A stretch of DNA of 64,000 nt from a virus. The stretch spans positions 1-64,000 of the IMG/VR virus record IMGVR_UViG_3300041586_000126; one strand, 5' to 3'. Positions 4,981 through 37,128 of this stretch are shown here, piece by piece. Position 1 is the stretch's first letter, and each line of letters starts with the position of its first letter. Below the pieces are notes generated by a model. The model was given only the letters and a program-made list of their open reading frames with translations, was not told the DNA's origin and ran no database searches. The position numbers and the translations under genes were made by a program.

Positions 4981-5052
4981 GCTCATTTATTTTAATTGGT
5001 AGAATCCCAATCTTGTAAATTGGAGGAAAAAGTTCGAATCTTTTAATGAGCT
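4981..5052 (+). tRNA. tRNA-Thr(TGT)
   Basis: GCTCATT/AATGAGC acceptor, CCAAT-CT-TGT-AA-ATTGG. Confidence 0.85.
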
Positions 5053-5112
5053 CTAAAGTAAACACCCCCTATGGGCAGAGTGATCTTAGGGAGATCAATG
5101 TTTACTTTTAAT

Positions 5113-10265: not shown

Positions 10266-10810
10266 TGGGAAAACAAACAGAATTAGACTTTGGATTTTCT
10301 ACCCAAGCAAACCCAGCAGCAATACCTTTTATAAGTGAAGTAGAGATGTTTAATAATTTAATGGGTAAATCTTATCAAAACAGAACTACACCCACTATTG
10401 ACCTCAAAGATGCTCAATTTGTAATTGATTTCATAGATGAAGAATTAAACGAATTAAAACAAGCAGTAAAAGAGGGAGATATTGTTGAAGTTTTAGATGC
10501 TTTGTTAGACATTACTTATGTATGTTTAGGGAATGGGTCTCTAGTTTTTGGTTTAAAAGACAAAATAGAAGCAGGGTACGCCGAGGTTCAAGCTTCTAAT
10601 ATGTCTAAAATATGCTCTACTTTATACGAGGCTGAAGAAACGGTAAGGGTAAGAAGTGAACAACAAGCAGAAAAATGTCATTATGTAAAACTAATGGACA
10701 AATATGTTGTGTACCGTAGTTCGGATAATAAGGTAATGAAGTCTATTAATTTTAAACAACCCAACCTTCGTCAGTTTTTTACACAAGAAGAGCTAGACAA
10801 AGATTATTAG
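10265..10810 (+). CDS. MazG-like / phosphoribosyl-ATP pyrophosphohydrolase-family NTP pyrophosphatase
   Basis: FIDEELNEL...EVLDALLDITYV...EVQASNMSK. Confidence 0.85.
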   Translation: MGKQTELDFGFSTQANPAAIPFISEVEMFNNLMGKSYQNRTTPTIDLKDAQFVIDFIDEELNELKQAVKEGDIVEVLDALLDITYVCLGNGSLVFGLKDKIEAGYAEVQASNMSKICSTLYEAEETVRVRSEQQAEKCHYVKLMDKYVVYRSSDNKVMKSINFKQPNLRQFFTQEELDKDY

Positions 10811-10887
10811 TATAAAATTAGTACCATAATATAAAAAACCCTAGGCTCCTATATGGAGCCTTGGTATATTAGAATAAATAAGTTATA

Positions 10888-12618
10888 ATGTACAAAAAAG
10901 CATACGCAACTAGAATAAAAAACAATAAATATAAAATTTATTTGTGGGACCAAGGAGGGTATAATGAAATTGAGTGGACAAACTGTGCTTATGTAGAATG
11001 CAAAAGTAATCAATTTACTCATAGAGGAATTAATGATGAATATTTACTTAAAACTCCTAACTGGTATAAAACAGACCCCCATTTACATTTCCATGATATG
11101 CCTCCTTATCAAAAGTTTCTTATTGAGAAATATGGAGCAGATGATACTCCCTCTACAGGACATAGAGAATTATTTTTTGATATTGAGTGTGAAATAGGAG
11201 GAGCACTTACCGAAGAATATATTGAAACAGCTCCCATGCCCATCACCTCAATCGCTTATTGGGATAAAACACCTGATAAATGGGTCATTTTAATATTAGA
11301 TAAAAAAAACGAATTACTACCTAAAGAGATTAATGGTAAGGAAATTATACCTGTAAGGACTGAAAGAGATTTACTGTTAAAGTTTATAGAACATTTTACA
11401 AACATTAGCCCAGATATCTTAGTTGGATATAATAGTGATTTCTTTGACATCCCCTACTTATATTATAGGATATGTAATGTTCTAGGGAGAGAATACGCTG
11501 ACTACCTTTCCCCTATTAATAAAGTAAATGCTAAAAAAGATAACCCCTACTTTCACAAACCAAACCAGTATGTAGATATTGTGGGTGTAGAATCTTTAGA
11601 TTATATCCGTTTACATAAAAAATACCATTGGAAAGATGAACCAAGTTGGAAATTAGATGCTATTGGTTTAAAATACGCTAATTTAGGAAAGGTTGAATAT
11701 CAAGGAAATTTGGACCATTTATTTTCTACTGACTTAAATAAATTTATTGAATACAACTTTCGTGACGTTGAAATATTACAAAAGTTAGATGAAAAATTAC
11801 AATATATTGCTTTAACTAAAAATTTATCTCATAAAGGTAAACATAATTATAGTGAAGTATATGCTAATAGCAAAACACAGGATGGTGCTATTTCAGCCTA
11901 TTTATTATCTCAAAATATAATACCACCACCTAAGGAACGGAACCCTCAAAAGAAGGAAACTTATGCAGGTGGGTATTTGTTTTGTCCTAAAGCGGGGTTA
12001 TACAAATATATGTTTGATGAAGATTTAGTATCACTATATCCTTCAATAATAATGACGTTAAACATAGGTAAAGAAACTTTTATAGGTCGTATTATAGATG
12101 AAGATGATCGTAATAATAGATTAGGTCTTAATGATTTAAGATTAAAAGACCCTAAAGAAGAATTATTAGTAGAAAATGGTAGACAACAAAGAACAGTAGT
12201 TCCTGTTAGTAAATTAATCAAAATAATAGAAACCGAAAAATTATCAATATCTGCTAATGGTTCAATGTTTAGAACAGACAAAGAATCTGTATTATCAACT
12301 ATCCTAAAGAAATGGTTCGAAGAAAGAGTTACATATAAAAAAAGGATGCAAAAAGCATATAAGGTAGGAAATAAGGAAGATGGGGATCATTGGCATAGGA
12401 TGCAATATACTATGAAAATTCTCTTAAATTCACTCTATGGCGCAACCGCTCTTCCTTCTTTCCGTTATTCTATGAATTTCCAAATACTAAGTGAAGCCAT
12501 AACCCTTTCTGGGCATAGAATTATACAAGAAAGTGCCCTATGTGTCAACAAACATATAAACAAAATTGTGAGAAGTGAAGAATTAACTGAGGAATTCAAA
12601 AAATCCCTTAATATATAA
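10888..12618 (+). CDS. Family B DNA polymerase, N-terminal part (3'-5' exonuclease, motifs A and B)
   Basis: FFDIECE, GYNSDFFDIPY, YNFRDV, DLVSLYPSII, KILLNSLYG; lacks motif C. Confidence 0.93.
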   Translation: MYKKAYATRIKNNKYKIYLWDQGGYNEIEWTNCAYVECKSNQFTHRGINDEYLLKTPNWYKTDPHLHFHDMPPYQKFLIEKYGADDTPSTGHRELFFDIECEIGGALTEEYIETAPMPITSIAYWDKTPDKWVILILDKKNELLPKEINGKEIIPVRTERDLLLKFIEHFTNISPDILVGYNSDFFDIPYLYYRICNVLGREYADYLSPINKVNAKKDNPYFHKPNQYVDIVGVESLDYIRLHKKYHWKDEPSWKLDAIGLKYANLGKVEYQGNLDHLFSTDLNKFIEYNFRDVEILQKLDEKLQYIALTKNLSHKGKHNYSEVYANSKTQDGAISAYLLSQNIIPPPKERNPQKKETYAGGYLFCPKAGLYKYMFDEDLVSLYPSIIMTLNIGKETFIGRIIDEDDRNNRLGLNDLRLKDPKEELLVENGRQQRTVVPVSKLIKIIETEKLSISANGSMFRTDKESVLSTILKKWFEERVTYKKRMQKAYKVGNKEDGDHWHRMQYTMKILLNSLYGATALPSFRYSMNFQILSEAITLSGHRIIQESALCVNKHINKIVRSEELTEEFKKSLNI

Positions 12619-12735
12619 TATTTTTTTACATATACTGCGTTATAAATAATAGAATAAAACTAGACATATAACACGGCATACTAACATAGACAATACATTA
12701 AACACGCGTAAAATGCGCATAAATTAAATAAAAAT

Positions 12736-12999
12736 ATGGCTCTCAACAAACAAACAATTAGAAGCAATCAAACTATATATAGAGAAGGTGTAATTCTATC
12801 AAAAGAGGAAATTATTGAAATAAGTGAAAGCTGGAATGAAAACCAAACTTTATTTTTTAAAAAGATGCTAAAGCAAGGGGGGCAATGCTTAATAAATGGT
12901 TGTTCTTTTAAAATATTGATTAAACAAAGAGATGATTTAGATTCTTATGGTGAAAAGCCTAAAACAACACCCCTTATTCCCGGAGAAAGAACATTTTAA
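12736..12999 (+). CDS. Hypothetical protein between the polymerase halves
   Basis: 87-aa ORF with an A-rich start; no intein or endonuclease motif seen. Confidence 0.7.
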   Translation: MALNKQTIRSNQTIYREGVILSKEEIIEISESWNENQTLFFKKMLKQGGQCLINGCSFKILIKQRDDLDSYGEKPKTTPLIPGERTF

Positions 13000-13013
13000 A
13001 TAAAAATACTAAT

Positions 13014-13954
13014 ATGAAATTCTTACAAGAAGTTCCAGAATACATATGTCCGAGTACTGACGTTAACCACGTCGCGTACTCGGACACGTGACAGACTCAA
13101 TCTATATACATGCTGAGCCCCTACTGTTAAAGTTATACCCCAATTTTGAGGAATTTACTGATAAAGAAAAGGATAATATTCTAGAAAAAGTAGCCCTAAA
13201 ATATCAAGAAGTAATTAATAATGATTATGGTAGAATAACATGTGATGTTTTTAACGTGAAGGATCATAGATTAGAGATGAAAACTGAAGCTGTTATTCGT
13301 ACTGCTTATTTTAGAGCTACTAGAAGATATGCCCAGTGGATTACAAAACAGGAAGGAATAGAAAAAGAAATATTGGATATTAAGGGATTAGAATTTATGA
13401 AAGCTAATTTTCCTCCAATATTAGGGAAATTCTTCAATAGTATTCTTGAACAAGTATTAAAAGGGGAAAAAAAAGATAATATTATAGAACAAATTAAAGT
13501 GTTTAAAAAACAAATAATTGATGGGGAAATCCCTCTTACTAAACTAGGAAATCCTACATCTGTTAAAAAGTTGAGTAAATATAGTGGAACAAATGCAAGA
13601 GCAGGGGAAATGTTCACCGAAATATTAAAAGGAGCCCCAGCTCCTGTAAAGGCCGCTATCCGATATAATGATTTATTAAAATTGTGGCAGTTAGATAAAA
13701 AGCATGACTTAATAACTCAATCGGATAAAGTAAAATGGATATACTTAAGAGATAATCCCTATAAAATAGAATCACTAGCATTTCAAGACCATGATATACC
13801 CGAAAAAATACAAGAATTTTTAAATAAGTATGCTAACCGTAGAATAGTATTTGAGACTATATTACTAAATAAATTAGAAGGGTTTTTTGGGGATCTTGAA
13901 TGGTCTCTTGATTTGAATCCCTATTTAAACAATTTTTCTTTCTTTGAAATTTAA
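13014..13954 (+). CDS. Family B DNA polymerase, C-terminal part (motif C, thumb), interrupted by 5 nt in YSDT|DS
   Basis: ATG13014 MKFLQEVPEYICPSTDVNHVAYSDT-TGA(13089-91); frame resumes GAC13094 DSIYIHAEP..RRYA..DIKGLE; needs recoding (hop) or is a lesion. Confidence 0.85.
13043..13093 (+). promoter_or_regulatory. Candidate translational-bypass signal: stem-loop, take-off ACG, stop TGA, landing ACA
   Basis: TGTCCGAGTAC (13047-57) is the exact reverse complement of GTACTCGGACA (13076-86); inner GACGT/ACGTC stem. Confidence 0.65.
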
Positions 13955-13962
13955 AACAAATT

Positions 13963-14694
13963 ATGATAAACAGAAACTTATTACAAAGCACAATATCTAA
14001 ATATTTTCTAGGTGATTTACATAAATCAGTTAAATGGAGAATTAAAGATAACACATTAACCGTTTATGCCCAAAGTGAAGGATTAGTATGTAAAACTTTA
14101 TTAAACAAATTCCCTGTACAAGATAGTGAAATAGGAGTATTTGATACAGATAAATTAGTTAAGCTTTTGTCTATTACTAATGGTGACTTATTAATGAGTC
14201 TAAGTGGTAACAAGGCATTAAAAAATGTTATGTACATTGAAGATGCTAATTTTAATTTAACTTATACTTTAGCAGACCCTTTAGCAATAGGTAAAACTAG
14301 TTGGGTAACCGATCCTGAATTTGATGTTGAATTGGATTTAAGTGACGATGATATATCTCATTTAATAAAAGCTAAAGGAGCATTAGACGCTACTAGTGTT
14401 CTTATTAAAACCACAGAAAATTTAAATGGAACTCTAGTGTGTGAATTTATGTTTAGTCCGGAGGCAATAGAAGATAATTATAGTAATAAGATATCATATC
14501 AAATTCAGGGCAACATTAAAGAAGAAGGAATGCGTCTTCCGTTTAATGCTCTAAAGTTTAGTGAAATATTAAAAAATAACAAAGACATGACTACCGCTAA
14601 ACTATTTATAGCAAATAGTGGTATGATGAAAATGGAATTCACGTCTGAGCATATAGAAAGTACTTATTACCTACTACGAAACGAGTTAAACTAA
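13963..14694 (+). CDS. Putative sliding clamp (gp45/PCNA-like)
   Basis: 243 aa, two-domain beta-rich pattern, GMMKMEF...STYYL C-terminus, adjacent to polymerase, clamp loader nearby. Confidence 0.7.
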   Translation: MINRNLLQSTISKYFLGDLHKSVKWRIKDNTLTVYAQSEGLVCKTLLNKFPVQDSEIGVFDTDKLVKLLSITNGDLLMSLSGNKALKNVMYIEDANFNLTYTLADPLAIGKTSWVTDPEFDVELDLSDDDISHLIKAKGALDATSVLIKTTENLNGTLVCEFMFSPEAIEDNYSNKISYQIQGNIKEEGMRLPFNALKFSEILKNNKDMTTAKLFIANSGMMKMEFTSEHIESTYYLLRNELN

Positions 14695-36774: not shown

Positions 36775-37128
36775 CATGCGGATGGACGTGGGTACTGAGG
36801 CGGTACTTACGCCTTATGTATTACGGGGGTGTAACGTACTGGGACGGTTATATCGTGGGCGGGCGGTACGGCGTATGCTGTGTATATCCATGCGCGCTGC
36901 TGTCCGTATATAACGTGGCGTGCGTAGAAAATGGTGGATGGTGACAAATCTATCTCGTACAACTTTACACCCCCGGGAAGTATATACAAATATACTACAC
37001 TCCCCACATTCTAAACCGCGCATTAGCGTTTGGTAAAAACCCAAAACCCAATCAATTCAGAATACCCAAAAAATCTCTCTCAAAAAATTTTTACGTAAGG
37101 AGAAACGGCCGTATCACCTTGCGTATAC
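36775..37128. other. GC-elevated non-coding segment with a G-to-C skew switch (candidate genome terminus/pac region)
   Basis: G-rich 36775-36945, C/A-rich 36960-37080, AAAAAATTTTT at ~37082; convergent transcription. Confidence 0.45.

Follow-up and report, generated by a model that had tools for sequence, protein, structure and literature searches.

In a family B DNA polymerase that is encoded by two genes, the second gene was found to have its catalytic motif C broken by five bases, TGACA, which begin with a stop codon and are entered by the 3' arm of a very stable RNA hairpin. Judging from the sequence and its relatives, we put at roughly 0.5 the probability that these bases are a miniature, hairpin-driven programmed translational bypass (a 'stop-hop'), by which ribosomes would pass over the stop and continue in the frame of the downstream part of the gene. 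The window, i.e., the whole stretch of 64,000 nucleotides analyzed here, belongs to a viral record of IMG/VR, 87 kb long and 54% complete, that stems from the metagenome of a salt lake. An initial annotation, made from the letters of the window, had already read the locus as a ribosomal hop, and this reading stands in part: the hairpin is associated with the insert and an assembly error was excluded at the level of contigs, but a match between the take-off codon and the landing codon holds in just one of the two lineages that carry the interruption.

A two-gene polymerase with a break in motif C

The features that the argument draws on are the following.

4981..5053, + strand: phage tRNA-Thr(UGU), by ARAGORN and the Rfam tRNA model
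10888..12618, + strand: PolB N piece, 576 aa, with the exonuclease domain and motifs A and B (Pfam DNA_pol_B 3e-24, DNA_pol_B_exo1 2e-19)
12736..12999, + strand: 87-aa ORF between the polymerase pieces, of no known family
13014..13088, + strand: first 25 codons (the leader) of the PolB C piece, starting at ATG 13014 and ending VAYSDT
13043..13090, + strand: RNA hairpin of 20 pairs (3 + 11 + 6), interrupted by a single A.C mismatch and a single bulged C, minimum-energy fold
13086..13088, + strand: proposed take-off codon ACG (Thr), the last frame-0 sense codon; rare, 5% of Thr codons
13088..13090, + strand: GTG overlapping the stop (GTGA), an alternative restart codon in frame with the C-piece remainder, (M)TDSIY...
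13089..13093, + strand: coding gap TGACA, 5 nt, comprising the stop TGA (13089-91) and the proposed landing triplet ACA (13091-93)
13094..13954, + strand: remaining part of the PolB C piece, beginning at the catalytic Asp that corresponds to RB69 D623 and including the thumb, by homology

The N piece shares 34% identity with residues 1-549 of the unsplit PolB of Microcystis phage Mel-JY01, and the remainder of the C piece shares 32% identity with residues 565-833 of the same protein; the leader, placed by way of its uninterrupted allele (protein P0121), aligns to RB69 gp43 around residues 606-622. Each gene thus corresponds by homology to its own part of an unsplit PolB and is conserved across relatives, which identifies the pair as a two-gene family B polymerase. 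More than 3,000 C-piece homologues are present in public data, and 118 of the 120 matches listed are 311 aa long with the leader included. Moreover, a separate C gene with its own ATG occurs in all of approximately 100 related IMG/VR loci, at a distance of 210-1915 nt from the N piece in the 87 loci measured. Division into N and C pieces is normal for this clade, but the five-base break is not: throughout those loci the motif Y-x-D-T-D-S runs uninterrupted, except in the window and in one further lineage (L019). The split gp43 (43A/43B) of Aeromonas phages 25 and 44RR is likewise a two-gene family B polymerase with variable intervening DNA and sometimes a homing endonuclease (PMC2988022); it accounts for the N/C split of the clade, but not for the extra break in motif C. 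A sliding-clamp-like gene lies downstream of the C piece, and a second polymerase gene was found nowhere in the 87-kb record (54% complete).

The 87-aa ORF between the two pieces gave no match in Pfam or PHROGs. An ORF of about this length is present in almost every inter-piece gap listed among the relatives, and it may encode an accessory subunit of the polymerase. The cargo around it varies, with cupin-like, cytidylyltransferase-like and methyltransferase-like genes in the gaps of loci L007-L109 and a GIY-YIG nuclease in L035, L028 and L031; in the window, no nuclease gene lies between the pieces. Among the C-piece relatives, one protein (P0002, from a 4.5-kb ENA contig) is 415 aa long and contains an internal tandem duplication of about 100 residues, which may be a real variant or an assembly artefact.

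Read from ATG 13014, frame 0 holds 25 codons ending V-A-Y-S-D-T, the last of them ACG at 13086-88, and then meets TGA at 13089-91; the downstream D-S-I-Y... lies in frame +2, from GAC at 13094-96 and the following TCA to 13954. This layout, down to its coordinates, is the one drawn in the initial annotation. Alignment to RB69 gp43 places the break between the equivalents of T622 and D623, and skipping TGACA gives a 311-aa protein identical at 311 of 311 positions to the uninterrupted sister protein P0121. TGA terminates just 3 of the 50 long ORFs in the window. At this C gene, gene callers annotate a truncated polymerase piece of 288 aa.

The reality of the five bases, on which the hop depends and for which the annotation had proposed a check against reads, was assessed at the contig level: they recur without differences in an independently made Logan contig (depth 11) from run X1, the probable source of the record. 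An assembly error was rejected on this exact recurrence and on the L019 junction, which is identical in three contig records of that lineage, all of this being contig-level evidence. Other ways around the stop were also rejected. No Rfam match at E <= 1 was found in 10500-14500, which speaks against an intron, a ribozyme or another known RNA. For a -1 frameshift, the frame of the C piece is open only from 13067, and a shift there would replace the conserved VAYSD strand. Hops from Asp to Asp or from Ser to Ser (GAC..GAC, GAT..GAT, UCG..UCU) would cost the motif its Thr-Asp.

Hairpin and insert in two lineages

The fold upstream of the stop contains a perfect 11-bp stem (13047-57 / 13076-86), to which the minimum-energy structure adds three further pairs (13043-45 / 13088-90), such that the 3' arm overlaps the take-off codon and reaches the second base of the stop codon. 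Its energy is -28.6 kcal/mol (z = -5.6), a value equalled by 0 of 200 shuffles, and no other 54-nt fold was as stable in a sliding scan of the window's + strand (21,316 folds, mean -5.6, sd 3.4); next in stability comes a local fold at 36856-36909, with -26.1 kcal/mol. Folding thereby bears out the 11-bp stem and the inner stem that the annotation had picked out. The same is true of the rare GC-ending codons said to precede the stop: in this window of 31.8% GC, the last six codons have within-family usages of 0.03, 0.07, 0.27, 0.04, 0.16 and 0.05 (that is, 3-27%), with a product of about 2e-7.

Three sister contigs (L004-L006) match the window at 99.6-99.7% identity over 6.9 kb, and the single gap in these alignments is the five bases. 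Of their approximately 16-21 mismatches with the window, five cluster within 13073-13085, and the comparison with public runs over 801 bases showed these to be five synonymous differences, at 13073, 13076, 13079, 13082 and 13085, standing beside the 5-nt deletion at 13089. Three of the five disrupt one G-C pair apiece, the remaining two replace G-C by G.U, and the uninterrupted allele folds at -8.0 kcal/mol (z = -0.85). The five bases are absent from L004-L006 and from runs X2 and X6, and present in X1, where the interrupted allele alone was assembled, in a contig of 21.6 kb. Within the lineage of the window the uninterrupted allele is the commoner one (5 contigs vs 2), and the window allele was found in one sample only. 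Sister phages that are almost identical lack the gap, so that this is a polymorphism which can be dispensed with and not a fixed regulatory device. In run X9, low-depth contigs break off on either side of the junction (window 13056-13129), and both alleles may coexist in that sample. The public runs listed as carrying this part of the window include none of RNA.

The second interrupted lineage, L019, differs from the window by approximately 25% of bases and has the same type of leader and the same hairpin, with an energy of -25.1 kcal/mol (z = -6.0). Its insert, located at the same codon as the gap of the window, is 6 nt long and in frame, and consists of TGA followed by 3 nt; in both carriers the stop thus stands directly 3' of the take-off codon (ACG-TGA in the window, ACA-TGA in L019). 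Five base differences separate the two hairpins: two change G-C to G-U, one changes U.G to U-A, and a double change creates A-U. None of them breaks a pair, and all keep or add pairs. The hairpin occurs only together with a stop-containing insert, in the window and in L019, and it is dismantled in the uninterrupted sister allele. The comparative test suggested in the annotation, namely that hairpin and insert should co-occur and co-vary, therefore came out in favor of the hop, with only two carriers to judge from.

Further carriers were not found when IMG/VR was scanned with the 3' arm, the 5' arm, the leader and Y-x-D-T-stop-NN(N)-D-S-x-Y patterns, nor did one metagenome scan, one genome scan and the GenBank phages yield a new case; scans with the motif pattern are necessarily narrow, since 14 fixed bases are required. 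Within the genome itself there is no second copy of the hairpin-arm/insert element. As to other differences between the two carriers, the N piece of L019 holds an intein-like insertion of about 430 aa, at about 180-1480 of L019, whose first residue is a Cys that follows ...VGYN and whose last residues, ...THN, precede a Cys; the N piece of the window lacks an insertion at that site.

When the window is compared with L019, the dN/dS of the C piece is 0.088 at a dS of 1.55, from which we infer that the piece is under strong purifying selection. Synonymous divergence falls to 0.46 in the leader, as against 1.4-1.6 in the flanks; because it is low across the whole leader, eight unpaired codons included, this could reflect recent exchange rather than RNA constraint. 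A tree uniting the window and L019 as one clade was not rejected (p-AU 0.61, log-likelihood 7 above the free tree), both branches being long, and for this reason the break may be old and, on the phylogeny, may predate the divergence of the two lineages. Horizontal transfer of a leader module between unrelated lineages is not needed as long as the one-clade tree stands, with the caveat of its long branches. An origin by a single hairpin-templated switch was rejected, as the 5' arm templates only an 11-mer, and the window and L019 share untemplated bases; these common bases make shared ancestry of the two interrupted alleles more likely.

A proposed translational bypass and competing readings

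In the reading that we favor, a ribosome would initiate at ATG 13014 and translate the 25 codons of the leader, the final six of which are rare and G/C-ending. It would then stall, its A site occupied by UGA, which is decoded poorly, and its peptidyl-tRNA-Thr paired with ACG. At this point the top of the hairpin would already be outside the ribosome, with the 11-nt 3' arm still within the mRNA channel, and zipping of the stem would draw the mRNA forward, each base of advance permitting another G/C-rich pair. The peptidyl-tRNA would release ACG and re-pair 5 nt downstream on ACA, and decoding would restart at GAC to give a single 311-aa chain with YSDTDS intact. Pairing of the exiting mRNA upstream has been proposed as a forward driver of bypassing, and for the 5' stem-loop of T4 gene 60 a distance of 26 nt is quoted (bioRxiv 10.1101/2024.12.09.627546); in the window, the loop's 5' side and the take-off codon lie 23 nt apart. 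Such a hop predicts the junction peptide ...AYSDTDSIYIHAEPLLLK (...AYSDTDSIY...), whereas restart predicts an (f)MTDSIY... N-terminus. If such a hop occurs, it must do so with an efficiency that suffices for the one polymerase found in the record. The further link to RF2 status or to the control of replication that the annotation suggested would be speculative.

Codon matching supports this course of events in the window. The phage tRNA-Thr(UGU) that the annotation had located at 4981 was confirmed by both ARAGORN and Rfam (4981-5053), and by standard wobble rules ACG and ACA should both be readable by it; in the window, a single tRNA that the phage itself encodes thus suits the triplet for take-off as well as that for landing. 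In L019, however, the take-off codon is ACA and the landing triplet UCU, which is not cognate to it, the middle base alone pairing by Watson-Crick. The rule that the codons for take-off and landing should match, as first formulated, consequently holds for the window and fails for L019, and since the L019 gap is 6 nt long and UCU is not cognate, one geometry combined with that rule does not cover both alleles. Either landing is relaxed for so short a hop, or the alleles differ in mechanism. A more specific proposal, which we regard as tentative and on balance unlikely, is that what carries the ribosome a measured 5 or 6 nt beyond the stop is the 20-bp hairpin at the mRNA exit and not renewed codon-anticodon pairing, in an allele that is dispensable and possibly selfish or nuclease-protective. 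It would explain the non-cognate landing of L019, because the exit hairpin rather than re-pairing would set the length of the hop.

Among the competing readings, termination at TGA followed by restart at the overlapping GTG survives best, and we consider it unlikely. The polymerase would then consist of the N piece, a 25-aa peptide bearing the first Asp, and a 288-aa C piece beginning Met-Thr-Asp-Ser, much as in the GTGA-coupled third subunit that the annotation had offered as an alternative. In the window this fits the sequence, for GTG 13088 overlaps TGA in the correct frame, the 288-aa protein is the one that gene callers already predict, and the essential metal-binding Asp (RB69 D623 equivalent) remains on the C piece. 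A further division would also not be without precedent: the polymerase already works as two pieces in more than 3,000 relatives, the split gp43 of T4-related phages is active (PMC2988022), and so is a Pfu polymerase that was split by accidental termination-reinitiation (PMC3061061). Nevertheless, the catalytic beta-hairpin would be cut open at its tip and gain two residues, a GTG behind a very stable stem makes a poor independent start, and the 20-bp hairpin, present only with the insert, would be left without a role. A further difficulty comes from L019, where the overlap of stop and start is not conserved. It has the same hairpin and the same TGA, but the ATG that overlaps this stop is in the wrong frame and reads Met-Ile-stop, and 55 codons pass before an in-frame start appears; restart there cannot yield the C piece, and with an in-frame TGA at that codon and no usable start behind it, L019 needs to be read on from the leader. 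The alternative of a coupled subunit is therefore tenable for the window and not for its relative.

It is also conceivable, and in our estimation decidedly improbable, that the two alleles are decoded differently or in some other way, e.g., by UGA readthrough in L019 with a two-residue insertion and by restart in the window, or by removal at the RNA level. L019 is in frame, such that plain readthrough would give a full-length chain, and no single simple rule covers both alleles. An odd tRNA is moreover encoded at 2544-2616, with the unusual anticodon loop CCACAAA, for which ARAGORN gives the anticodon ACA (Cys) and which has C instead of U at position 33; this tRNA might bear on UGN codons. 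Readthrough would, however, leave the frame of the window unrepaired, and the turn between the two catalytic Asp residues, which does not vary in any relative seen, would be disrupted by the two that are added. The search of 10500-14500 that found no known RNA family, intron or ribozyme weighs against removal from the RNA, and the hairpin and TGA position common to both alleles favor one mechanism.

Least probable of all, and very unlikely in our view, is that the interrupted allele is defective or merely tolerated (e.g., a complex mutation or a conversion patch riding with intact phages) and involves no decoding device: although the intact form is the commoner one (5 contigs vs 2, plus runs X2 and X6), the window allele comes from one sample and the X9 contigs stop on either side of the junction, X1 assembled the interrupted form only (depth 11, 21.6-kb contig), no other polymerase gene was found in the 87-kb record (54% complete), and a 25%-diverged lineage has the same design with pair-preserving changes in its hairpin. 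A dead gene is unlikely given the dN/dS of 0.088 (0.09 when rounded), the otherwise intact frame of L019 and the X1 assembly of the interrupted allele alone.

Relation to known recoding systems

To our knowledge, bench-supported, efficient programmed bypassing is confined to T4 gene 60 and its homologues, the yeast mitochondrial byps and, in part, the Hau3 terminase. The locus described here resembles T4 gene 60 in several respects. Both concern an essential replication enzyme of a T4-like phage that is split into two genes, with the insert a few dozen codons into the second gene and beside invariant catalytic residues. In both, the stop follows directly on the take-off codon, take-off and landing triplets are matched (here in the window only), an upstream stem-loop can form while the mRNA exits the ribosome, and the presence of the insert varies among close relatives. 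The differences are equally clear. The gap of gene 60 is 50 nt long and interrupts a topoisomerase, whereas the gap here has 5-6 nt and interrupts a polymerase, and the two share no sequence homology. There is no room here for an A-site take-off stem-loop, the nascent chain has only 25 residues, the upstream hairpin of the window is far stronger and is the dominant signal, and L019 lacks a cognate landing triplet.

In T4, the gene 60 insert shields the DNA from the MobA element's own nuclease (10.1101/2022.08.31.505936; PMC5009743). As the window has no adjoining nuclease gene, nuclease protection is for this locus an analogy only, and membership in the homologous T4 gene 60/MobA family, whose cassette sits in the gene for the topoisomerase large subunit together with MobA and homologous tails, was rejected, the host gene being a family B polymerase with no nuclease between its pieces. 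Two explanations for the presence of the element may be considered. It could be an insert that is tolerated or selfish, and it perhaps guards a conserved site of nuclease attack in the way that the insert of T4 gene 60 does; or it could serve to hold down the amount of the polymerase C piece.

In Streptomyces phage Hau3, the gene for the terminase provides the closest short example of natural bypass, with two 10-nt inserts (PMC10732093), and it shares with the present locus short non-coding blocks in an essential phage gene, a slow A-site codon, nearby RNA structure and insert-free relatives. There, however, the trigger is the rare sense codon UUA, for which a regulatory role via the host tRNA was proposed, and here it would be a stop codon; the present gap is half as long, and the Hau3 case has mass-spectrometry support from a UAA-substituted cassette in E. 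coli, whereas ours is built on sequence. Also comparable are the synthetic 'stop-hops' obtained in E. coli (Weiss et al. 1987, described in PMC5009743), in which peptidyl-tRNA likewise shifts from the pre-stop codon to a matching triplet just beyond (+5 or +6); those were engineered constructs that hopped at a low level and without stimulators. A review of 2016 knew of no natural in-frame stop-hop (Atkins, PMC5009743). If the bypass is confirmed, the element would be about the smallest possible, since it consists of a stop and just two further bases and its visible signal is a single large hairpin upstream. The same phage without gap and without hairpin offers a natural control, and because of it the model of exit-side pairing is directly testable with a cassette of approximately 100 nt.

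Inside the tRNA array of the phage there is also a match to permuted tmRNA (Rfam RF04321) at 2634-2786, which scores 58.5 bits against a gathering score of 47.
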